From NCBI GenBank assembly GCA_963831915.1, contig CAWHRV010000008.1, positions 245,788-277,787 of the forward strand: a DNA stretch of 32,000 bases, in the 5' to 3' direction. Shown here piece after piece: positions 13,668-25,012 of the stretch; positions within the stretch are counted from its first letter, which is position 1; every line of letters starts with the position of its first letter. A program made the position numbers and the translations under genes. The stretch is from an uncultured Methanobacteriaceae archaeon. Its GTDB lineage: Archaea > Methanobacteriota > Methanobacteria > Methanobacteriales > Methanobacteriaceae. The notes beneath the pieces were generated by a model, which was not told the DNA's origin, searched no databases, and saw only the letters and a program-made list of their open reading frames with translations.

Positions 13668-14804
13668 ATGAAGATACTTTTTATAGGGGCACGTCTATTT
13701 GAAGATGTAGCACCATACACAAAAAATCTTGCGATTAATAGTATTTTAACAGAATCTAACCCCGAATCTCCTAACCTTAAACTTGCAGATTCCTACCATA
13801 TTGTTTCAAGGGGGATGGATGAACCAATGCAAATTGCAATCAATGAGGAAGTTGATGGTGTCGTGCCATTAATTGGCATTGATGAACCCCTTGTAGAGAT
13901 TGCAATTATGAAAGAAAAGTTAGAAGAGGATTATGGAATACCTGTAATCGCTTCTGGTATTTCAGCTGCGTCTACATGTGCTGACAAATTTAAGGCTAAA
14001 GAATTTTTCGTTGAAAACCAGATTAAAACTCCAAAATTCTTTAAAATATCTAAAAATGATTACCATAATGTTTTACCCAAAATGGATAATCAAATGCCAA
14101 TAGTTTTGAAACAGACAAAAGGTCAGGGAGGATCAGGAGTTAATATAGCATCTTCCATAAAAGATATGGAAAAATATATTAATGAATTTGAATCTGGTAT
14201 TGCAGAAAGATTTATCGAAGGATCTGAGGTTTCAATTGAAGTATTGAGGTGGAATGGTAAATCTGTCCCATTAGTTCCAGTTTATAAAGGAGAAACCACC
14301 ATTGAAGGCATCCATCCTCTTAAGAAGATTAAAAAAGCCCCATTAGAAATAGATGGTATTAATAATTCTAAAAACAACCGGAAAATCCAAGAAATTGCTG
14401 TTAAAATTGCAGAGAATATTGGTTTAGAGGGTACTGCAGATATTGATATTATTTATGACTATGAAAATAATGAAAATAATGTAATTGAAGTTAACGCCCG
14501 ACCTAGTGGCACACGGTACATCACATGGGCTACTACGGGCATAAATATCATGCACGAACTAGTTAACATGGCTTCTGGAAAATGGAATGCATTGAAACTT
14601 AAAAAAAGTATTAAAAATTACTCTGGCATTGAGATACCGGTTGGAAATTATATTTCGCAAAAAAATAGTCAGATCATGCACGATTTTTCTGACGAAGCTT
14701 CTTGGATAATCCACGGACCTGAAAATCATCAACGAATAACTATACGTGGATCATCCATGGGAAATGCGGTTAAAACTGCAAAAAAGCTCGAAATATGGGA
14801 ATAA
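13668..14804 (+). CDS. Stand-alone ATP-grasp ligase, CarB/Ddl-like (pseudomurein cluster member)
   Basis: ATP-grasp elements: PIVLKQTKGQGGSGVNIA (Lys plus Gly-rich loop), ERFIEGSEVSIEVL, and DIDIIYD...VIEVNARPSGT. The last compares with [11 protein letters not shown] in the carB of this same window. GTGAT Shine-Dalgarno lies before the ATG. Confidence 0.8.
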   Translation: MKILFIGARLFEDVAPYTKNLAINSILTESNPESPNLKLADSYHIVSRGMDEPMQIAINEEVDGVVPLIGIDEPLVEIAIMKEKLEEDYGIPVIASGISAASTCADKFKAKEFFVENQIKTPKFFKISKNDYHNVLPKMDNQMPIVLKQTKGQGGSGVNIASSIKDMEKYINEFESGIAERFIEGSEVSIEVLRWNGKSVPLVPVYKGETTIEGIHPLKKIKKAPLEIDGINNSKNNRKIQEIAVKIAENIGLEGTADIDIIYDYENNENNVIEVNARPSGTRYITWATTGINIMHELVNMASGKWNALKLKKSIKNYSGIEIPVGNYISQKNSQIMHDFSDEASWIIHGPENHQRITIRGSSMGNAVKTAKKLEIWE

Positions 14805-14954
14805 AAAAAATTAAAAAATTCTATATAGTCCATGACAATATAGAATAAAGAAATTGATTTATTAATAGTTAAGATAGAAAGGTTCATATTAGAATAATTG
14901 TATTTAAAATCCATAAATGCAAATCATTACAATAAAACAATTATAGGTGGTATC

Positions 14955-16028
14955 TTGAGCAATATCCAGTTAGAAGTTTTCATATTCTTACTCGCATTCC
15001 TATCAACAGCGCTTTTCACCCTGTTCGTAAGGAAGGTGTTGAAATATGCAGACATCAAAGACAATCCAATAGTCACAGAACACAGCCACAAAGCAGGCAC
15101 GCCCACAATGGGAGGCCTAGCTATACTCATGGGAGTTCTTCTTCTTGCATGTGTTTATTACACAGATAAAAACCTTATATTAACCGTAATAATTATGCTG
15201 ACCGCCGGAATTGTTGGATTGATGGATGATCTAATTGGTCTTAAAACTAAGGAAATTCAAAAAGTAATAATGAATATCAGCCCTAATCCTGTGGAAATTG
15301 GCAGATTGACTCTTAAAAAGGGTGAAAATGCAAGAGTTACAACACCTAAAGCGAAAAAGGACTTGGAATATCTCCTAAAAAATAATTTAGTAGAGATAAT
15401 AGGTGAAGCCCCAATAAAAAGTGAGGTAAAGGAAAACGAAAAAATTCTGGCACAGATACTTGTTTCACTTTTCCTGATAGCTTCAGGGGCGGTTGGTGCT
15501 TCGGTATTAGGATTTAATATTGGCATATTTATAATTCCCGTAGTAATATTCTGTATAGTTGGATCAATCAATTCAGTGAATCTTATTGATGGAATGGATG
15601 GACTGGCAGCAGGAATAATTGCTATAGCCTCTGTTGCATCGGCATTATTTGCATTATCAACGGGAAATATTGGTGGAGCAGTACCATTTATAGTTCTTGC
15701 AGGAGCATGCTTCGGATTTCTTGTTTTCAATAAGTATCCCGCAACCATATTCATGGGTGATACGGGATCCTTTGCACTTGGAGCAGGTTACATGACCGCT
15801 GCATTTCTGGGCGATGTATTTTACTTTGCCGTGATTGCGATTGCTGTACCTATACTTTCTGTTGCTGTGAGCCTCTTACATAGAGCTCATGTGATTAAAC
15901 TCCCTGTAGAACCACTTCATCACACATTACACTATAAAGGATTATCAGAGAAGAAAATAGTTTTACTTTACTGGTCAGCCACCATTATTGTCTGTGCTGC
16001 AGCATTATACGGATACAGCCTACTTTAA
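14955..16028 (+). CDS. MraY-like polyprenyl-phosphate sugar-phosphate transferase (glycosyltransferase family 4)
   Basis: Polytopic membrane protein. DD motif LMDDLIGLK. NSVNLIDGMDGLAAG. FMGDTGS. PVEPLHHTLH matches the MraY HHH-region position. The longest ORF starts at TTG 14898. I prefer the in-frame TTG 14955 because AGGTGG (14944-14949) lies just upstream and TM1 begins there. Confidence 0.85.
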   Translation: MSNIQLEVFIFLLAFLSTALFTLFVRKVLKYADIKDNPIVTEHSHKAGTPTMGGLAILMGVLLLACVYYTDKNLILTVIIMLTAGIVGLMDDLIGLKTKEIQKVIMNISPNPVEIGRLTLKKGENARVTTPKAKKDLEYLLKNNLVEIIGEAPIKSEVKENEKILAQILVSLFLIASGAVGASVLGFNIGIFIIPVVIFCIVGSINSVNLIDGMDGLAAGIIAIASVASALFALSTGNIGGAVPFIVLAGACFGFLVFNKYPATIFMGDTGSFALGAGYMTAAFLGDVFYFAVIAIAVPILSVAVSLLHRAHVIKLPVEPLHHTLHYKGLSEKKIVLLYWSATIIVCAAALYGYSLL

Positions 16029-16054: not shown

Positions 16055-17551
16055 ATGAAGGATATCACAGCAGCATATTTGGCAAAAAAGGTGAATGGAA
16101 GATTAATAGGAACTGAAAAACCTATAAAAGGAATTTTTACCTTTCTAAACAGTGCTGAACCCGGAGATGTGGTTGTTAGACACTGGATTGACGGCCAAGG
16201 AGTTAAAATGGCCTCTGATAAAGGCGTTTCATGTCTTGTAACTCAAAACATCCGAGGAGATGCTATTGAAATAGCTGAAAAGCTCGAATTACCCATTATT
16301 ATAACTCCTAAAATAGAATTTGCCAATGCATTCGCATTAAAATGGGCAATAAAAAACTTTGCAAAAAATTCCATTCGTGTGGTTGTAACGGGTACAAATG
16401 GTAAATCCACAACAGCAAACATGATATACACTATATTAACAAAAGCAGGATATTCTACATACACCAATACCGATGCTAAATCTGAGTTTAATACATTAAT
16501 AGATCCTGTTATTGCAAAACAGGTCGCAGAGTTTGAAAAAGTAAATAAGAAAAAGATTCAAGCCATGGTTGTTGAGGTTTCAGAAGTTCAAGGATGGTTG
16601 GACAAATTAATGAAAGATCATGCACAACTCATGACCTCCGCAGTAGAACCTAATGTCATTGTACTGACAAATGTAGGTTTGGATCATATTGGTTTAGTTA
16701 ATTCTATCGAAGAAACCTACAATGAAATATATGGTTCATTAAAAGGAATATTCCCTGTTCAATCAGATGAAGTTGAGGATAATAAATTAAATGATGTTTA
16801 TGCTGTTTTAAATTCAGATGATCCACTTTTGAAGGACATGGGGAAACTGGTGGAAAATCAGGGCAATTTTAAACTTTTATACTATGGTAGTAAAGTAAAT
16901 GAATCATTATTCCCTGATGTATCCCTTCAATCTGAAGGTATATACTTGAAGGATAAACCATTCTTAAAAACAGAGGAACTACCATTTAAGAGTAAACATT
17001 TCATTCAAAATACAATGGGAGCAATAGGTGCTTGTTTGGCATTAAATATAGATTTAGATGTTATAAAAAATGCTGTATCATCCTATATACCCCTTAAAAG
17101 AAGGTTCACAGTGCTTGGAAAAGATCCACTAATAATTGATGATTTCGCCCATAACCCTGATGGAATAATTGCAACAATAAAGAGTGGTTCAAAGATGTGT
17201 GAAGGTGTTCTTTACATTGTATTCGCCATCAGAGGCTCAAGGGGAGAATCTATTAATCATTTAAATGCTGAGGCAGTTGTTGAAAGCCTTGAAGGTGTTG
17301 ATCATCATATTATTGTTACGAGCAGTAAAGATGTGGTTGATAAAGCAAACGTAGTAAAATCTGTAGAAAAGAATGTGGTTCTTAAAACATTGACGGAAAA
17401 TGGGTTAAAATATGTATTTGAAGAAAAACTGTATCTTGCATTGGAGTACAGTGTAAGAAATGCAAAAGAAAAAGATACTATACTTCTTCTTGGTGCCCAA
17501 GGAATGGACCCTGCCAGTGAAGCACTGGAAAAAATATACAAAGATATTTAA
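16055..17551 (+). CDS. Mur-ligase family peptide ligase, paralogue A (MurE/MurF-like N-terminal domain)
   Basis: P-loop VVVTGTNGKSTT. VVEVSE (Mg Glu). VLTNVGLDHIG. IIDDFAHNPDG. The N-terminal 90 aa (LAKKVNGRLIG...PGDVVV...GVSCLVTQ) resemble the MurE/F substrate-binding domain. Confidence 0.85.
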   Translation: MKDITAAYLAKKVNGRLIGTEKPIKGIFTFLNSAEPGDVVVRHWIDGQGVKMASDKGVSCLVTQNIRGDAIEIAEKLELPIIITPKIEFANAFALKWAIKNFAKNSIRVVVTGTNGKSTTANMIYTILTKAGYSTYTNTDAKSEFNTLIDPVIAKQVAEFEKVNKKKIQAMVVEVSEVQGWLDKLMKDHAQLMTSAVEPNVIVLTNVGLDHIGLVNSIEETYNEIYGSLKGIFPVQSDEVEDNKLNDVYAVLNSDDPLLKDMGKLVENQGNFKLLYYGSKVNESLFPDVSLQSEGIYLKDKPFLKTEELPFKSKHFIQNTMGAIGACLALNIDLDVIKNAVSSYIPLKRRFTVLGKDPLIIDDFAHNPDGIIATIKSGSKMCEGVLYIVFAIRGSRGESINHLNAEAVVESLEGVDHHIIVTSSKDVVDKANVVKSVEKNVVLKTLTENGLKYVFEEKLYLALEYSVRNAKEKDTILLLGAQGMDPASEALEKIYKDI

Positions 17552-17817: not shown

Positions 17818-19224
17818 ATGAAATGTGTAATAATTGGCGCAGGTAATGCAGGACGTCCCGCTGCAAGAATCCTTAACCACATTGGGAATGAGGTCATTTT
17901 AACAGATCAAAAACTCTTTGAAGATTTCCCACTGAAAGTTCAGAAAACCCTTGAAATAATGGAAAAAGAGGGAGTTAAACTTTTATTGAACCCCGATACT
18001 CTTTTTGAGTTTGAAAATATTGATTCAGCATACATATCACCCACCATACCTGAAAATTCACCAATCAGAGATTATTTAAAGGACAATAATGTCAAAATAC
18101 TGGACAATGAATACATTTCTACCATAATAAACGATCTTCTGGAACTGGATGTAATAGGAATTACAGGCACCCTTGGAAAAACCAGCACAACCCATATTAT
18201 ATCTGAAATATTCAAACAGGCAGGTTTCAGCGTCTGGACTTGTTCATCCAGGATGGGAAACCTTTTAAGCGAGGTTATTGTTGACGGGATCGTTAATGGG
18301 CTTCATATTAAAAATAACATTGCAATTCTTGAACTTCCACACGGAACTTCGAGGTTAATGTCTCAAGTTAATCTTAAAGTCGGTATAATAACCAACATTT
18401 ACCCTGACCATTTAGATGAATTCGATTATTCCATGGAGAAGTATGTAGCCCGTAAATTATTCATAACAAATTCTAGTGAAATTTTAGTTTCAGGAATCCA
18501 GTGCAAGGAATATATCGAAGATTTAAGGGACAATACAATTTATTATTGTACAAACAATGAGTTTTGTAATGTTAATGGAAAATTGGATAATGGAAAATTG
18601 GATATTACATATGATATACCCTCAATGAAACTAGCTGGACAATTTGAAACGCCATTTAAATTATTGGGATACTACTTTGAAAATTCCATCGCAGCTGCTG
18701 CGGCAGCAATCGCATATGGATTAGACAATAACTCCATAAAAAAGGGATTAAAAAGTTTTAAAGGAATTGCCGGCCACATGGAGTACATTGGAAATTTTAA
18801 AGGCAGACAAGTGCATTTTGATGCAGCATTTGTACCTGAAGGATTAATTAATACTCTTGAAAGCTTTCGGACTAAAGACTTGGTTGTTCTCGTTGACAAC
18901 CCAGACAGTACAAACCCAAGGGACAAGTTCAAGGTAGGAGAAGTTGTTGGAAGATATGCTAAAGTTATAATATGCAGCGGATACAATGAAACAACTAAAA
19001 AACCAGATATTGAAGCTGCAAATAAAGTTATTCAAGGAGCTCAAAATTCTAAAGCGATTAAAATCGCTGTGGAAGATATGATAACTGCTGGTAAATTATC
19101 AATTAAATATTCAAATCCAGGTTACACAATTTTACATGTTGGTCCTGGAGCCATAACCAATTATGAAGATGTTAAATTCAAAATGTTGTCCGGTATTGAG
19201 GAAGGATGTAAAAAATATGAGTAG
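17818..19224 (+). CDS. Mur-ligase family peptide ligase, paralogue B (MurD-like Rossmann N-terminus)
   Basis: N-terminal [20 protein letters not shown]-loop [34 protein letters not shown]. The DxxHNP motif is degenerate (FDAAFVPEG). Confidence 0.82.
18574..18603 (+). repeat. Perfect in-frame 15-bp tandem duplication inside ligase B
   Basis: AATGGAAAATTGGAT occurs twice back to back and encodes [10 protein letters not shown]. Confidence 0.95.
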
Positions 19225-20782
19225 TACCGAAGGAAAAAACATTAAAGAAGCTAAAACATCAACTCCCAATCCTGATGTTTACGGGGTTGTTGGTGTCTGT
19301 GGTGTGGTGGGAAACATGCTGGCGAGAATGTTAATTGACCACAACTGTAAGGTACTAGGAACAGACATAAATGGGAAGGATAACTGTGAATACATTTATA
19401 CACTACAGGACTACAATTTACCCCTCTATTTATCAGAACATCCTGAAGCGTTTTTTAAAAATTCAACATTTATCGTGCCCCCTCCAAGTCTTGGCGAAGA
19501 TTCAGAACTTTGTAAAAAAATAAAAAATTATGGATTAGATATTTTAACTGTCGATGATTGCCTTAAAAAATTCAAACCTGAAAAGCCCGTACTATGCATA
19601 ACTGGTACCAATGGTAAAACTACCACCACCACACTTTTAAAACATATATGCCGATCAGCTGGTTTAAATCCTAGTGAACATGGTTTCAGAAATTTACAGG
19701 GAAATATTGATTATATACCTCCATTACAGGCCAGATTAAATGGAGATGTGGCAGTTCTCGAGACAGGAACATTTGGAAATAGTGGAGATATAAAAAAATT
19801 GGTAGAAAGGTGCGAACCAGACTGTGGAATCCTAACCAACATTAACCCTGATCATCTGGATAAAAATCATGACTTCATGAACTACGCAAGAATTAAGGGC
19901 GAATTTGTCGATTACTTCAAAAACAAAAAATTAATAGTAAATTCAGATGATCCTACTGCATTTGGCCTTGTAGATCAAAACACTGATTTTGTTACGTTTG
20001 GAATAGATTCTGACACATTTAGTACTGTGCTAAAAAGATGTTGGTGTGGAAGGGATATCGAATTAAGTGAAACAATTACTGGTTCAGGAGTTTACAGTTG
20101 TGAATGTGGGTTAAATAGACCCGAACCAGACTTTCTTGCAACGGAAATCGATGAAACCCATGGAAGGTTTAAACTCAGAACACCCGAGAGTGTTCTGGAT
20201 GTTGAGATGAAATTAATTGGACTTCATAATGTCTACAATACCATTGGTGCCATTGCAGCTGCAAGAGAATTCTTTGAAATTCCCTATGATGATATAATCC
20301 GTGCAGTTGAAAGTTTTGAGGGGGTTCCTGGTAGAATTGAATATCTATTCAGCCAAAATGGAATGGATATAATCATTGACTACGGTCATAACCCTGCAGG
20401 AATAGAAACTGTTCTTAGGGAAATAAAAAAGGTTTATAATCATATCACCGTAGTAATTACAGTTTCTTCAGAATCTGGAGAATCTGGAGATAGGGAAATA
20501 CTCAAAAAAGCCATGGAATTAGCTGATTTCATTGTACCTGCATCCTTTGCATCGAGGATGGCTGCAGAAAAACATGAGGAATATATTTCTTCAGGAAAGA
20601 TCATATTCACAGACATATCTTTGAAGAAATTTCAAAAAGGTACACTTGGAGCAACATCAGATCAGGTATTAGAAGGCCTAAAAAAAGGTTTAGAGTGTAA
20701 TACTTCCGTTTTAGTATGTCTTGGGGAAGCTGCATTTAAATACAAAGAAAATATTATCAAATTGAATGATTTGAAGTCATAA
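19217..20782 (+). CDS. Mur-ligase family peptide ligase, paralogue C (MurC/D-like N-terminus, internal four-Cys insertion)
   Basis: N-terminal [17 protein letters not shown]-loop [44 protein letters not shown] prefer the ATG at 19217, which gives an 8-nt overlap ATGAGTAG with the ligase B stop and has GAGGAAGG upstream. The longest ORF starts at 19163. Confidence 0.85.
20471..20488 (+). repeat. In-frame 9-bp tandem duplication inside ligase C
   Basis: GAATCTGGA occurs twice and encodes ESG-ESG. Confidence 0.9.
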
Positions 20783-20913
20783 CTAATTTAGGGTCTGTTT
20801 AATATCATTACATACTATTAAATCTATTAAGATCAGATCAGACTTAAGGATCAGAATGAGATCAAAATAAATATTATAAGTGCATATTGTCAATGCACTA
20901 AATAGGTGAAAGA

Positions 20914-21348
20914 ATGTTCATAAAAATTAGGAGAGATACTTTAATAATTTTATTACTAGCCTTCATGCTCATTGTATCTGGTAGAGTCATGACTTACATG
21001 TCATATGCATCTTCCACAGATGTGGATAAAGGAGTTCAAATTTCAGGAGTTATAATAAAGGGAAACGATATAATCCCCCTTGATTCTATAAAAAATAGTT
21101 TAGCTAATGTTGGATTCAGATCAGGAAGTTATATACAGGGAGATACTTTGGTTACAAGTAAACGTAAAGTTCCCTTGAATGAAGCCATTGAAAATGCTAA
21201 ACAAGCTGCGATGCTTACAACAATACCCGGAACACAGATCACACCAATTGTTGCAGCAGATGTGCAAGTGGATAAAGCAACAGGAATAGTTACTGTAAAT
21301 GTCATTGAAGACTTTTCAAACATCAAAATTAAGGGGCTGAATACATGA
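20914..21348 (+). CDS. Bitopic membrane protein, 144 aa, with a POTRA-like ectodomain (function unknown)
   Basis: AGGTGA Shine-Dalgarno (20904-20909). N-terminal basic stretch then one hydrophobic helix (LIILLLAFMLIVSG). The remainder has a beta-alpha-alpha-beta-beta-looking pattern (ISGVIIKGNDIIPLDSIKNSL ... GIVTVNVIE). The stop overlaps the next start. Confidence 0.7.
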   Translation: MFIKIRRDTLIILLLAFMLIVSGRVMTYMSYASSTDVDKGVQISGVIIKGNDIIPLDSIKNSLANVGFRSGSYIQGDTLVTSKRKVPLNEAIENAKQAAMLTTIPGTQITPIVAADVQVDKATGIVTVNVIEDFSNIKIKGLNT

Positions 21349-22607
21349 ACCGGCCAAAATTAATGTTGTTTTTAATACTTGTATTTACCATTGCTACGGT
21401 TGTTAACACATCATCAGCCACAATGAATGTCGTGGTAATTACAGATCCCACAGGACAAGATCCTAACGGTGCAGCAGCAGGAAGTCAGTCATGGGCTGAA
21501 AACATGTTCCAGTCAACCTTCATACTATCAAAGGAAAAAAACTTCGCTGTTCTATCAGGAGGATATGGAAACGAAACACCCAGACTCGGTGCTATTGTGG
21601 AAACATTAAATAGACTTGAGTCAGGTGCTACTGCAGCGGATGCTGCATCAGCAGCCAGTGGTTTCTCTGGTATAAGGATTATGGTTGGAGGGCCAAAGAT
21701 AGGTGCTGCTGTAGGTGGTTACTTCAGTGCATATGTGGTAACAGTGGCTGCTGACAATACAATTACAGTAACTCCATATGAAAGTGGTCTGGCCACACTT
21801 CCACCGGGACAAAGGGGGGCAATAATACATTTGAGAAACACCCCAGGTAACCCACAATATGGTACAGCTGATGCTGTACGTAAAGATACAGCTATTATGA
21901 TGGGTAAAATGATAAGGGACGGTTATCCTGCCACAGAAATTGTTGGTGCGGCATTTGAAAATGTTGCCAAGAATGCTGGTGAAAAACATGGTGGGGGTGC
22001 AGTGAATCTGGTTTCCGGAATAACTACAGGGGATATGTTCACACCAACTGCATTAAATACAACCGGTTTTTCAATGGATGAACCATACAGTAAGACTTGT
22101 CCGGTTGATGGATGGAGTATTGCTTATCCTGCAGCAGAAAACTATGAAACATGTCCTAATGACGGGACTGCCCTCAAAACTGTATACGCTTATCAAGCTC
22201 TTACAAATGCAATTACAGTGACTGGAAACAGTACATCAGTAGCAGTTTATGGTAGCGATGCACCAGGAATTGCAGAAACCACACAGGAAATAGTAGTAGC
22301 CTCTGTGAAAAAACATGGCTACAGCAGTACCGAGATAGCTAAATCTATTAACAATGCAATTGGTAATGGACTGCTTGTAGGTGTTAATTACGTAGAAGCT
22401 AAGGACATTAATGTAAAGGAAAGCTCCAAAGCAGTTGGTGTTTACTATAAAGCACTGCCGGATAATAGATCATCACCACCATGGAATTTACCAATTAGTT
22501 CCTCAATTTTAGATATTTTAGGGAATATGCAGACGGCTATAGGATTGATATTAGTTATCTTGGTCCTCTTCAGAAGCACTCTAATATCTTCGTTCCTTAA
22601 AAAGTAA
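21345..22607 (+). CDS. Exported protein, 420 aa, Ala/Gly/Thr-rich with a C-terminal membrane anchor (function unknown)
   Basis: ATGA overlap with the upstream gene. Signal-like N-terminus MNRPKLMLFLILVFTIATVVNTSSA. C-terminal hydrophobic helix AIGLILVILVLF followed by basic residues. Several N-x-S/T sequons. A CPxDG...CPNDG pair provides the only two Cys residues. Confidence 0.72.
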   Translation: MNRPKLMLFLILVFTIATVVNTSSATMNVVVITDPTGQDPNGAAAGSQSWAENMFQSTFILSKEKNFAVLSGGYGNETPRLGAIVETLNRLESGATAADAASAASGFSGIRIMVGGPKIGAAVGGYFSAYVVTVAADNTITVTPYESGLATLPPGQRGAIIHLRNTPGNPQYGTADAVRKDTAIMMGKMIRDGYPATEIVGAAFENVAKNAGEKHGGGAVNLVSGITTGDMFTPTALNTTGFSMDEPYSKTCPVDGWSIAYPAAENYETCPNDGTALKTVYAYQALTNAITVTGNSTSVAVYGSDAPGIAETTQEIVVASVKKHGYSSTEIAKSINNAIGNGLLVGVNYVEAKDINVKESSKAVGVYYKALPDNRSSPPWNLPISSSILDILGNMQTAIGLILVILVLFRSTLISSFLKK

Positions 22608-22716
22608 AATTCGGGCATCATGATTTGGTAGGGATAGAAAGTAAATGAAATTCTGTCCTTACATAAATTTATTTTAAAAATTAATATCTAATATTTGTTT
22701 AGAAGGAGTAAAAATA

Positions 22717-23070
22717 ATGGCTTTAATTTTAATACGTGCTGAAGATCAGGGAAAACTATTGAATACAATTGCAGATATTGAGAGACATGCTGGACTTAAA
22801 GTTGCGGGTAAACCTCGGATAATAGATCCAAAAACTGCCGATGCAATTGCCGGGAAAATATTAAAACAAGAACTAAGGTCAAAATCAGATATAGCTGTTC
22901 TTTTACGTGTTGAAGACGACACAACCAAAAGTATAGTGCATATACGAAAAATTCATCCTCCCGCACATGTAATTGTAATTAGTGAGGAGTACAGTGAATT
23001 TAAGGAATTGGAAGAAACATTTCATAGTTTGACCTATCTTAAGGGATACTACTCCCATAAAAATAAGTGA
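22717..23070 (+). CDS. Small soluble hypothetical protein, 117 aa
   Basis: GAAGGAG Shine-Dalgarno 8 nt upstream of the ATG. No TM segment. No motif I can assign. Confidence 0.6.
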   Translation: MALILIRAEDQGKLLNTIADIERHAGLKVAGKPRIIDPKTADAIAGKILKQELRSKSDIAVLLRVEDDTTKSIVHIRKIHPPAHVIVISEEYSEFKELEETFHSLTYLKGYYSHKNK

Positions 23071-23129
23071 ATAATCATGCTTTAATTTTAAAATCGAACT
23101 TTTATTAATTTGAATTAAATGAATATGTC

Positions 23130-23155
23130 AGAATAATGGTTAATTCCATTATTCT
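23130..23155. terminator. Perfect 10-bp inverted repeat between convergent genes
   Basis: AGAATAATGG (23130-23139), loop TTAATT, CCATTATTCT (23146-23155). It lies between the 117-aa gene stop (23070) and the mbf1 stop (23164). Confidence 0.4.
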
Positions 23156-23163
23156 ACTTATAT

Positions 23164-23640
23164 TCAATTTCTTTTTATTCTAGCTATATCTCCAATGGTG
23201 GCTCCTCTTACCTTTGAGTGGCCAGTTTCATCTGCCGAAATATCATCTGATTTTTCAATAAGTGCAACGTGCATTATTTTCTCGATCTTCCTTGCAAGCT
23301 TCAGATCTGGCACCATTTTACCAGATTCTATTCTGTTAACTACTGATGCTTTTTCATAGATTTTCTCTCCAAGTTCTTCACGAGACCAACCTTTCTTCTC
23401 TCTTGCCTGTCTCACGATTTCATTATAATTTTCTACAACTTCTTCAACAGGCTCTATTGGTCTTTGAATTCTTTTGGTTACCTTTCCACCCCTTGGAGCT
23501 CCTGGTCTTTTGGGTTTGGGGGGCTCCCGCTGAACTTTACCAAATTTTGAGCACTCTTTACAAGTAAGCATGATTGAACCATCGACTTTAGTCTTCAGTG
23601 GTTCTTCTACTAATTTTTTTCCACATATCTCGCATCTCAT
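23164..23640 (-). CDS. Archaeal multiprotein-bridging factor 1 (MBF1): N-terminal zinc ribbon plus C-terminal HTH
   Basis: CEICGKK...CKEC zinc ribbon. Basic linker. Cro/C1-type HTH (REKKGWSREELGEKIYEKASVVNRIESGK). Confidence 0.85.
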   Translation of the reverse strand: MRCEICGKKLVEEPLKTKVDGSIMLTCKECSKFGKVQREPPKPKRPGAPRGGKVTKRIQRPIEPVEEVVENYNEIVRQAREKKGWSREELGEKIYEKASVVNRIESGKMVPDLKLARKIEKIMHVALIEKSDDISADETGHSKVRGATIGDIARIKRN

Positions 23641-23779: not shown

Positions 23780-25012
23780 ATGGAAAACATGTCCCCAAAT
23801 GTATTAAAAAAGATTGAAGACCTCAAAACGGAGATAAAAATCCTAAAAGAGGATAACACTAAAACCAAACGTAACCTCATGTGGAAGGTTAGGAAGCTCG
23901 AAAAGGATAAAGTCCTGATCGAAAATGAAAAGATGAGGCTGGACAGAGAAGTAAAATCTCTAAGGGGAGAGATTGAAAGGTTCAGATCACCACCACTAGT
24001 AATTGCTACAGTTACTGAAGTTTTAGACGACGGTAGGGTAGTTGTAAAAAGCAGCACAGGCCCTAATTTTGTTATTGGATATTCACGATTCTTAGATGAA
24101 AAGTCTCTCGAACCTGGTGTTCGTGTGGCGCTTAACCAGCAGACATTTAGTATTGTACACGTTCTGCCATCAGAAAAAGACCCAATAGTTACTGGTATGG
24201 AAGTGGAAGAAAAACCTGATGTTGCATACGAACAGATAGGCGGATTAGAGGAACAAGTAGTAGAAATAAAGGAAACTGTTGAACTACCCCTTAAAAAACC
24301 AGAACTGTTTATCAACATAGGTATAGAACCTCCAAAAGGAGTACTACTTTATGGACCTCCTGGAACCGGAAAAACATTGCTTGCAAAGGCAGTTGCACAC
24401 GAAACAAATGCCACCTTCATAAAGATAGTTGCATCAGAATTCGTTAAAAAGTACATAGGTGAAGGTGCGAGACTTGTAAGGGGTGTTTTCGAACTTGCTA
24501 AGGAGAAATCTCCAAGTATAATTTTCATAGATGAGATTGATGCCATAGCTGCTAAAAGGTTAAAAAGTTCCACCAGCGGAGATAGGGAAGTTCAGAGAAC
24601 ATTAATGCAATTACTTGCTGAAATGGATGGTTTCGAAGGCAGGGGTGATGTTGGGATAGTTGCAGCAACTAACAGACCAGACATACTAGATCCTGCACTT
24701 TTAAGACCTGGACGTTTCGACAGGTTCATCGAAGTTCCAATTCCTAATGAAGATGGTAGAAATGAAATATTGAAGATCCACACTAGAAACATGTCTTTAG
24801 AAGAAGACGTAGACATTAGACATATTGCATCTCTCTCAGAAGGAGCTTCAGGTGCGGATCTAAAAGCCATATGTACTGAGTCGGGTATGTTTGCTATTCG
24901 GGAAGAAAGATCTACTGTTAAAATGAACGATTTCTTGGATGCTGTTGATAAAATAGTTGGCATGGAACACGACGAAGAAATGAAAAAAGAAGCTGGAGTT
25001 ATGTTTGGATAG
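23780..25012 (+). CDS. pan: Proteasome-activating nucleotidase PAN (AAA+ ATPase)
   Basis: N-terminal coiled coil ([19 protein letters not shown]...). OB region. Walker A GPPGTGKT. Walker B IIFIDEID. Second region of homology [27 protein letters not shown] Shine-Dalgarno. Confidence 0.93.

Follow-up and report, generated by a model that had tools for sequence, protein, structure and literature searches.

Predicted Ntn-hydrolase and POTRA-like folds in Mfer764 and Mfer763, a conserved protein pair of the pseudomurein gene cluster

The Mfer763/Mfer764 pair and its gene cluster

Three consecutive genes follow the ligase genes of a pseudomurein biosynthesis cluster on the plus strand of a 32,000-nucleotide (nt) stretch of DNA from an uncultured Methanobacteriaceae archaeon, the whole of which we refer to as the window. 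The first two, gene 1 (Mfer763 family, 144 residues) and gene 2 (Mfer764 family, 420 residues), form a pair that is the main subject of this analysis, and the third encodes a 117-residue DUF356 protein (Table 1). An earlier note, drawn up from the sequence alone, had singled out these three open reading frames (ORFs) as a possible module for envelope assembly, and their positions and strand are borne out by the ORF list. The ATGA stop/start overlap between the first two frames at 21345-21348 (aatacATGAacc) was confirmed as well, with an AAGGGG ribosome-binding site located 8 nt upstream, and hydropathy analysis reproduced the topology described for the proteins, namely a single N-terminal hydrophobic segment in the 144-residue protein, both an N-terminal and a C-terminal segment in the 420-residue protein, and none in the 117-residue protein.

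With respect to family identity, gene 1 is a full-length member of NCBIfam NF053641 (237.7 bits versus a cut-off of 170, with residues 1-137 aligned to profile positions 1-137), and gene 2 is a full-length member of NF053642 (696.9 bits versus a cut-off of 560, with residues 25-417 aligned to positions 1-393). Gene 3 matches Pfam PF04009 at 133.8 bits, the gathering threshold being 29.9, and its residues 3-106 cover positions 1-104 of the 106 in that profile. Since these family cut-offs are passed and conserved orthologues of all three genes occur in 70-82 other genomes, the genes are real and not chance ORFs. An exact-sequence look-up of the gene 2 protein returned no record. The remark in the earlier note that none of the three could be placed in a known family is literally wrong, as each falls into a family that is named, though uncharacterized.

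The NCBIfam names Mfer763 and Mfer764 originate from Subedi et al. (2021, PMC10117817), whose Gene Cluster 2 consists of a D-Ala-D-Ala-ligase-like gene, MraY, pMurE, Mfer763 and Mfer764. These authors described the two proteins as highly conserved, as containing transmembrane domains, as present only in pseudomurein-containing methanogens and as encoded always downstream of pMurE; having found no homology to annotated proteins, they suggested that the pair may represent de novo archaeal solutions to wall synthesis (PMC10117817). Lupo et al. (2025, PMC11915815) arrived at the same pair on their own; in their cluster A the two genes are OG0001162 and OG0001472, both described as devoid of known domains. 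The system is thus not undescribed, as the earlier note had supposed: the pair, its synteny, its restriction to pseudomurein producers and the same hypothesis are already in print (PMC10117817, PMC11915815), and the two genes of the window do not stand out within their catalogued families. No fold or activity for the pair is given in Subedi 2021, in Lupo 2025 or in the 2026 enzymology paper on PMurB, PMurC and PMurE, and neither POTRA/FtsQ-like nor N-terminal nucleophile (Ntn) fold assignments for it were found in the searchable literature. The structure-based hypothesis considered below, with a predicted Ntn fold for gene 2 and a predicted POTRA-like fold for gene 1, is offered as a new lead.

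The genomic setting of the pair is that of a dedicated wall-synthesis locus. Five genes upstream on the plus strand score above the curated NCBIfam cut-offs for pseudomurein enzymes (Table 1), which shows that the window carries a pseudomurein biosynthesis cluster; outside this cluster the window carries housekeeping genes. Its nearest relatives are uncultured Methanobacteriaceae, in which the 420-residue protein shows 87-88% identity.

Linkage of the pair was analyzed in 82 loci, comprising 80 species-level genomes and two Methanopyrus loci. Gene 1 was found directly upstream of gene 2 in all 82, with spacings that range from -8 to +91 nt; in 18 of these loci the two genes overlap by 4 nt. 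A Mur-type ligase gene, either pMurE or pMurC, lies directly upstream of the pair in Methanobacteriaceae and in Methanopyrus, and the synteny with Mur-type ligase genes is accordingly kept in both groups. Under strict thresholds this ligase gene was recovered in 62 of 70 loci, and most of the other eight are split or low-identity matches; at one locus (L070), a gap of 2.2 kb separates the ligase gene from the pair. In Methanopyrus the gene order is Mur ligase, ATP-grasp, MraY, Mur ligase, a 149-residue gene and a 416-residue gene. As a side observation, the Methanopyrus kandleri AV19 locus (L081:11253-12362) encodes, directly after Mfer764, a 369-residue polytopic membrane protein that lacks any Pfam domain. 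This protein, which corresponds to OG0000796 of Lupo et al. (PMC11915815), is a candidate for another of the missing membrane steps; none of the 80 Methanobacteriaceae loci encodes a homologue within 10 kb of the cluster.

The predicted restriction to pseudomurein lineages also held. When 1.84 billion representative proteins were searched by phmmer with the 420-residue protein, 54 matches were obtained, nearly all of them fragments of the same family with at least 41% identity, and no true relative of gene 2 outside the pseudomurein lineages was present among these representatives. The sole divergent match (P0169) was rejected as a spurious repeat protein. Named homologues are from Methanobacterium, Methanobrevibacter, Methanothermobacter and Methanopyrus. 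Identities to the orthologues from Methanopyrus kandleri are 43-47% (Mfer764) and 38% (Mfer763), values that are high for two long-diverged orders. An attempt to broaden the alignment by searching with Mfer763 of Methanopyrus returned only five sequences, all from Methanopyrus. One metagenome-assembled genome labeled 'Methanomicrobiales archaeon' (L027, JBNGDB010000017.1) contains the full pseudomurein cluster, and its Mfer764 and its proteasome ATPase PAN are 68% and 88% identical to those of the window. This is almost certainly a Methanobacteriaceae genome that was mislabeled or misbinned, and it does not count as an occurrence of the pair beyond the pseudomurein lineages. For genes 1 and 2, in sum, none of the outcomes named beforehand as telling against the earlier note, among them orthologues widespread in archaea without pseudomurein and linkage to Mur-type genes that is not conserved, was encountered.

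Table 1. Genes, predicted protein domains and candidate signals at the locus (window coordinates)
Feature	Coordinates	Strand	Basis
Ddl_archaea ATP-grasp ligase gene	13668..14804	+	NCBIfam, 562 bits vs cut-off 500
MraY-type transferase gene	14898..16028	+	NCBIfam MraY_archaea, 561.6 vs 450 bits; Pfam Glycos_transf_4
pMurE peptide ligase gene	16055..17551	+	NCBIfam pMurE, 697.7 vs 600 bits
pMurD1 peptide ligase gene	17818..19224	+	NCBIfam pMurD1, 750.6 vs 610 bits
pMurC peptide ligase gene	19163..20782	+	NCBIfam pMurC, 760.4 vs 560 bits
TATA-like box AAATAAATATTATAAG, candidate promoter	20866..20881	+	about 39 nt upstream of gene 1 ATG
Inverted repeat AGTGCAT-N7-ATGCACT	20879..20899	.	hairpin scan; right arm conserved in relatives
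Gene 1, Mfer763 family, 144 residues	20914..21348	+	NCBIfam NF053641, E 3.5e-71
Gene 1 residues 7-33, N-terminal hydrophobic helix (signal anchor or signal peptide)	20932..21012	+	AlphaFold2; hydropathy
Gene 1 residues 41-135, POTRA-like ectodomain (predicted)	21034..21318	+	pLDDT >90; Foldseek
Gene 2, Mfer764 family, 420 residues	21345..22607	+	NCBIfam NF053642, E 6.6e-210
Gene 2 residues 1-25, predicted Sec signal peptide ending S-S-A	21345..21419	+	variable n- and h-regions; conserved c-region
Gene 2 Thr26 codon, proposed N-terminal nucleophile	21420..21422	+	invariance; first model strand
Gene 2 residues 26-225, Ntn-hydrolase-fold domain (predicted)	21420..22019	+	AlphaFold2 and Foldseek
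Gene 2 residues 247-281, zinc-ribbon-like insert	22083..22187	+	weak zinc-ribbon Pfam matches
Gene 2 residues 298-367, small beta-alpha-alpha-beta-beta domain (predicted)	22236..22445	+	AlphaFold2 element order
Gene 2 residues 386-419, C-terminal membrane anchor with basic tail (predicted)	22500..22601	+	AlphaFold2 helix; hydropathy; 0.85 bits
Stem-loop and T-tract, terminator-like, after gene 2	22622..22675	+	stem-loop 22622-22669, minimum free energy -16.9 kcal/mol, z -2.7
Gene 3, DUF356, 117 residues	22717..23070	+	Pfam PF04009, E 3.4e-39

Predicted folds of the two proteins

An AlphaFold2 model of gene 2 was built from 119 family members and had a mean predicted local distance difference test score (pLDDT) of 83.4, with all five models in agreement (pLDDT 79-83). 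In this model an N-terminal helix at residues 3-20 is followed by a first strand at residues 26-32, and the domain spanning residues 26-225 has the element order of four strands, two helices, six strands, two helices and one strand. The best match in the Protein Data Bank (PDB), as identified by Foldseek, was to circularly permuted taspase-1 (entries with E 2e-5 to 7e-4, probability 0.99-1.00), and further matches included the DUF1028 protein SPO2555 (PDB 2imh, E 8e-4), the Mycobacterium proteasome beta subunit, HslV, GlmS and a circularly permuted asparaginase-like protein. Down to the HslV entries, nearly all of the best matches are Ntn hydrolases, and these belong to several families (E 2e-5 to 2e-2). 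The chains of the permuted taspase and asparaginase constructs start with the catalytic Thr, and an order-dependent match therefore favors chains that carry the nucleophile on their first strand. Taken together, the model and its matches suggest that residues 26-225 have the four-layer alpha-beta-beta-alpha core of the Ntn hydrolases.

The N-terminal region of gene 2 is consistent with such a fold. The first 22 residues are variable, at 2.29 bits per column, and a signal-like N-terminus is present in every genus, in which a basic n-region precedes an h-region of 12-18 hydrophobic residues, and the c-region takes the form (V/S/A)-(A/S)-A in all genera, Methanopyrus included. Thr26, the residue that follows, does not vary: it was found in each of 117 aligned sequences and in each of the 82 orthologues from genomes. 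For two positions close by, the aligned family sequences gave Ala25 in 116 of 117 and Asn28 in 118 of 118. Within the domain of approximately 200 residues, 54 positions are invariant across two orders, and the many invariant polar residues of gene 2 include D34, D39, N41, S47, S49, R80, R111, H162, N165, N169, R191, D192, E213, N221 and D230.

Two further elements of gene 2 lie between this domain and the C-terminal anchor. The first is an insert for which weak zinc-ribbon Pfam matches were obtained in 61 of 119 family members. In the window protein it reads CPVD...CPND, which keeps two of the four cysteines (CDCD) in place of the two CxxC motifs of a zinc ribbon. The knuckle positions of the 82 orthologues were CCCC in 16, CCCD in 20, CDCD in 25, SNSD in 12, SDDD in 6 and other cysteine-free combinations in 3, so that the insert is free of cysteine in 21. 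This decay from CCCC through CDCD to SNSD argues that metal binding is not essential; the insert appears to keep its fold while its metal site can be lost, an unusual situation among extracellular zinc ribbons. The second element is the small domain at residues 298-367, whose predicted element order, beta-alpha-alpha-beta-beta, is also that of a POTRA domain. A comparison of the gene 2 and gene 1 profiles by hhalign revealed no similarity between them.

For gene 1, an AlphaFold2 model from 126 sequences had a mean pLDDT of 83.8, and again the five models agreed (pLDDT 81-84). The ectodomain, where pLDDT exceeds 90, consists of a strand (residues 45-49), a helix (56-65), an insert of three strands (72-75, 78-80 and 85-87), a second helix (88-100) and two strands (112-119 and 125-132). 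We read this arrangement as a probable POTRA-type beta-alpha-alpha-beta-beta unit with an insertion, a fold call that is consistent but marginal. The FtsQ chain of the FtsB-FtsL-FtsQ complex (8hhf_Q; probability 0.99, E 7e-3) was the top Foldseek match in the PDB, and the next 50 matches were mostly POTRA domains, including those of BamA, TamA, CdiB, Sam50 and a cyanobacterial Omp85. At the sequence level, the Pfam family POTRA (PF07244) was matched weakly by 6 of 126 members, with a best E of 0.13. The analogy drawn in the earlier note with the ftsQ position of bacterial division and cell wall (dcw) clusters is therefore apt at the level of the fold, FtsQ being the best structural match of gene 1. 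The beta domain FtsQ_DivIB_C gave no Pfam match, and gene 1 extends only some 10 residues past the POTRA-like domain.

The most conserved part of gene 1 is not this ectodomain (0.91 bits) but the basic tail and helix that precede it (MFIKIRRDTLIILLLAF.LI..GR..TY, 0.31-0.67 bits). This is the opposite of what is seen for the signal peptide of gene 2, and it suggests that the gene 1 helix is retained as a functional anchor. Such conservation of membrane segments, which in the pair is highest in the cytoplasmic tail and helix of gene 1 (MFIKIRRD...) and in the C-terminal anchor of gene 2, would point to contacts between proteins within or at the membrane, and together with the match of gene 1 to FtsQ it lends some weight to a non-enzymatic reading. 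In that reading the pair would tether the membrane to the sacculus or, in the manner of FtsQ/DivIB, couple the cytoplasmic machinery for synthesis and division to the wall, and the Ntn-like domain would be a dead scaffold, of which inactive Ntn-fold proteins such as the proteasome alpha subunits offer precedents. A scaffold, however, would need neither an invariant Thr26 placed exactly at the predicted processing site nor the roughly 20 invariant polar residues of the domain. Gene 1 also lacks the beta domain through which FtsQ binds FtsB and FtsL, and PSI-BLAST searches of pseudomurein archaea found no FtsQ, FtsL, FtsI or FtsW (Subedi et al., PMC10117817). On balance we regard a purely structural role for the pair as very unlikely. 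The FtsQ-like fold is itself a new lead that does not contradict the PSI-BLAST result, because it is invisible to sequence comparison.

Several observations weigh against the fold assignments and against the enzymatic reading that is built on them. In terms of sequence, none of the Ntn families of Pfam that were tested (Proteasome, Asparaginase_2, DUF1028, G_glu_transpept and CBAH) was matched by the 119 members of the gene 2 family, at E values up to 10, or by the domain consensus. The gene 2 family profile matched nothing in the PDB in a profile search, and hhalign of this profile with the DUF1028 protein 2imh gave a probability of 0.6%. The apparent likeness between TxNIIVITDPTG..GAAAGS in gene 2 and TFSILAHDPETG..GAAATGS in DUF1028 was rejected following a shuffle test that was not significant; for the mature N-terminus, this test gave a z of 1.6 for the window protein (410 of 5000 shuffles as good) and a z of 3.0 for the family consensus (68 of 5000). 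Lys63, which was considered as a proteasome-like base, is not invariant. In terms of structure, the Foldseek alignments of gene 2 have template modeling (TM) scores of 0.3-0.5 and root-mean-square deviations of 5-8 Å, and a PP2C phosphatase, likewise an alpha-beta-beta-alpha sandwich, stands at rank 12. With respect to gene 1, no Foldseek match reaches an E of 1e-3, POTRA_1 (PF08478) is matched by none of the 126 members, the consensus sequence has no POTRA match, and hhalign of the gene 1 alignment with Escherichia coli FtsQ gave a probability of 0.4%. The alignments behind both models are thin, with an effective number of sequences (Neff) of about 2. Finally, SignalP calls of Lupo et al. (Table S1, PMC11915815) assign a Sec signal peptide to only two of four gene 2 orthologues and a Sec/SPI signal peptide to four of five gene 1 orthologues, which would make gene 1 secreted and not anchored. 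Wrongly called start codons may contribute to the missed signal peptides of gene 2; the JGI Methanopyrus protein P0124, for example, starts with MIVITDP.

These points bear most directly on the view that the predicted folds are misleading and that the pair has nothing to do with peptide chemistry, acting instead in glycan polymerization, in flipping of the lipid carrier or as a PP2C-like metal enzyme. Neither fold is confirmed by sequence, a PP2C structure is among the matches, and no glycan polymerase is known for pseudomurein. Nonetheless, all five AlphaFold2 models agree, several independent Ntn and POTRA families were matched, and no member has a Pfam match to a PP2C or a glycosyltransferase, so that we judge this view highly improbable. 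A PP2C-like reading of gene 2 in particular was rejected, as the Ntn matches are both stronger and more numerous. Beyond the named families, searches of Pfam, NCBIfam and PHROGs with the proteins, the 119 and 126 family members and the consensus domains yielded only the weak zinc-ribbon and POTRA matches described above. Penicillin-binding proteins (PBPs), L,D-transpeptidases and transglutaminases had no Pfam match in any member and are absent from the Foldseek matches of gene 2. A search of a viral structure library gave no match, which leaves phage- or virus-derived Ntn lysis enzymes unsupported as relatives.

Gene 3 and the transcription signals around the pair

Gene 3 differs from the pair in both its predicted location and its distribution. 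By hydropathy the DUF356 protein has no hydrophobic segment or export signal, and no informative PDB relative was found for it. The gene lies downstream of gene 2 on the same strand, within 300 nt in 63 of 78 loci, and some loci of Methanobrevibacter and Methanobacterium have a spacing of as little as 1-15 nt. In 12 loci it stands 0.3-6.5 kb away, and three loci lack it, namely L029 and both Methanopyrus loci, with no copy within 10 kb of the Methanopyrus cluster. The sole mention of DUF356 found in the literature concerns a Borg element of Methanoperedens, an organism without pseudomurein.

The close spacing in most loci is what recommends a single functional module of all three genes, as put forward in the earlier note. 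The two genes that follow, encoding aMBF1 and PAN, are however equally conserved beside DUF356, and the synteny may therefore be no more than an inherited gene order within one family. The absence or displacement of DUF356 at 15 of 78 loci, its reported occurrence in the Methanoperedens Borg and its lack of an export signal tell further against such a module, as does, in the clade of the window, its separation from gene 2 by a stem-loop with a T-tract and by its own GGAGT ribosome-binding site. We consider a three-gene module quite unlikely. The part of that claim that stands concerns genes 1 and 2, whose predicted products are exported or membrane-bound and which are adjacent in every locus; gene 3 is probably a cytoplasmic neighbor and not a demonstrated member of the pair's module. 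As for the surrounding order (22717-23640 and 23780-25012), DUF356, aMBF1 (minus strand) and PAN (plus strand) keep their arrangement beside the pseudomurein cluster across Methanobacterium and Methanobrevibacter, with PAN identities of 74-99%, which illustrates the strength of merely inherited synteny within this family. Between the convergent DUF356 and aMBF1 genes, a terminator-like hairpin of 10 pairs is located at 23130-23155.

Upstream of the pair, the core of the TATA-like box (AAATATTATAAG) is kept in 13 related loci, and the rest of the 131-nt spacer diverges. The inverted repeat listed in Table 1 sits between this box and the ribosome-binding site of gene 1, and in the segment 20866-20899 a promoter may be combined with a 5' hairpin or an operator. 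Transcription of the pair from a promoter of its own is thus possible in this clade. With a candidate promoter at this position, co-transcription with the ligase operon, to which the earlier note attached the three genes, is not required; it is plausible in genomes in which no more than about 50 nt separate pMurE from gene 1. Downstream of gene 2, hairpins of differing sequence occur at the same position in all nine close relatives examined (9/9), and RNAalifold on a MAFFT alignment of this region found no consensus structure.

A separate observation concerns the upstream ligase genes. The longest ORF for pMurC shares 62 nt with pMurD1 (19163-19224), and the NCBIfam pMurC match begins at residue 40; the true start of pMurC is probably a later ATG downstream of 19163, for example the Met at residue 19.

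A possible role in pseudomurein assembly and its relation to known systems

Building from the established gene identities, family membership, synteny, phyletic restriction and residue invariance, and from the predicted folds with their structural matches, we tentatively propose, with somewhat less than even confidence, that gene 2 is an exported and anchored enzyme of the Thr-Ntn type that acts on amide bonds of pseudomurein stem peptides, that gene 1 is its POTRA-like partner, and that transpeptidation is the likelier reaction. The pair is the conserved and, by prediction, extracytoplasmic part of Gene Cluster 2 of Subedi et al. and cluster A of Lupo et al.

The cleavage, catalysis, substrate and complex formation that this proposal entails are steps that we infer. 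Specifically, the Sec signal peptide would export gene 2, and its removal behind the invariant Ala25 would expose Thr26 at the N-terminus; a classical Ntn autoproteolysis at the Ala25/Thr26 bond would give the same N-terminal Thr. The C-terminal transmembrane helix would hold the Ntn-fold domain at the outer face of the membrane, where Thr26 could attack an amide bond of an exported stem peptide to form an acyl-enzyme. The acyl group might subsequently be passed to the amine of a neighboring stem, which would amount to cross-linking, or to water, which would amount to trimming or remodeling. Gene 1, as the partner in the membrane, would bring either gene 2 or its substrate into position.

With respect to these two outcomes, transpeptidation appears more likely than hydrolysis. 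Transfer is favored by the single copy of gene 2, by its extreme conservation and by its fixed location next to MraY and pMurE, and a cross-link that must form outside the cell and independently of ATP would be made most economically by transferring an existing peptide bond. PBPs cross-link in just this way, and the Ntn enzymes gamma-glutamyltranspeptidase (GGT) and CapD move gamma-glutamyl groups onto amines.

The present data do not separate hydrolysis from transfer by gene 2, and the same folds could house a pseudomurein hydrolase, for instance a stem-trimming carboxypeptidase, an endopeptidase or an autolysin, with gene 1 as its regulator or anchor. Most characterized Ntn enzymes do hydrolyze, and the top structural matches of gene 2 are all hydrolases. 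Autolysins, by comparison, are usually multi-copy, variable and dispensable, whereas gene 2 is a single-copy gene with the cross-order identity given above, and its fixed place beside MraY and pMurE better fits a core biosynthetic step. For these reasons we think a hydrolase unlikely. There is also competition for the cross-linking role from published candidates, which counts against assigning it to gene 2 and in favor of a hydrolase: the only cross-link makers proposed in the literature are exported transglutaminase-like proteins, whose genes are unlinked to the clusters. PBP orthologues were not found in pseudomurein archaea (Subedi, PMC10117817).

The preferred reading, that of an amide-acting Thr-Ntn enzyme with a POTRA-like partner, also admits a more specific form, in which Mfer764 would be the pseudomurein cross-linking transpeptidase and Mfer763 a minimal relative of FtsQ, perhaps what is left of an ftsQ gene acquired together with the bacterial Mur ligase genes of a dcw-type cluster. 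In this full form we consider it rather unlikely. The extracellular polymerization and cross-linking of pseudomurein are without an assigned protein, and since 2021 the pair has stood as the cluster's conserved unknown; the fold reading turns it into a testable case, with one obvious candidate catalytic residue, Thr26, and a POTRA partner. If the fold reading holds, it would provide a specific target in Methanobrevibacter and related methane producers of gut and rumen, and it would bear on the question of a descent of the pseudomurein machinery from a bacterial dcw cluster. If the reading fails, the pair is a catalogued uncharacterized family.

In terms of known systems, the closest are the Mfer763 and Mfer764 families themselves, with which the window genes agree in full-length match, in position after Mur-type ligases and in taxonomic restriction, without any difference. 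FtsQ/DivIB resembles gene 1 in its N-terminal helix and in an extracytoplasmic domain that, for gene 1, is predicted to be POTRA-like, and the resemblance extends to position. In bacterial dcw clusters ftsQ follows murC-ddl, and gene 1 similarly follows the last Mur ligase gene. Gene 1 differs, however, in that it is half the size, has no beta domain and no sequence similarity to FtsQ, carries an extra beta-hairpin between its two helices, and begins with a helix that may be a cleaved signal peptide; moreover, pseudomurein archaea lack its partners FtsB, FtsL and FtsI.

With the Ntn superfamily, represented by taspase, type-2 asparaginase, the DUF1028 protein 2imh, proteasome beta and HslV, gene 2 shares the predicted order of core elements and a conserved Thr at the start of the predicted first strand. 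It differs from these enzymes in having no detectable sequence relationship to them, in a Thr that we propose is exposed by signal peptidase and not by autoproteolysis, in its predicted extracellular and membrane-tethered location, and in its zinc-ribbon-like insert and extra C-terminal domain. CapD and GGT are exported Thr-Ntn enzymes that form an acyl-enzyme and transfer the acyl group to the amine of a cell-wall peptide. They provide an analogy only to the chemistry proposed for gene 2, the pseudomurein wall being built with gamma-Glu and epsilon-Lys bonds; gene 2 is not homologous to them by any test that was run, and GGT structures are not among the matches listed. Finally, PBPs, L,D-transpeptidases and transglutaminase-like proteins occupy the same slot as that proposed for gene 2, namely extracellular ATP-free cross-linking, with folds that are unrelated to it. 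Should gene 2 prove to be a transpeptidase, the archaeal wall would be cross-linked by a class of enzyme that no bacterium is known to use for the synthesis of peptidoglycan.

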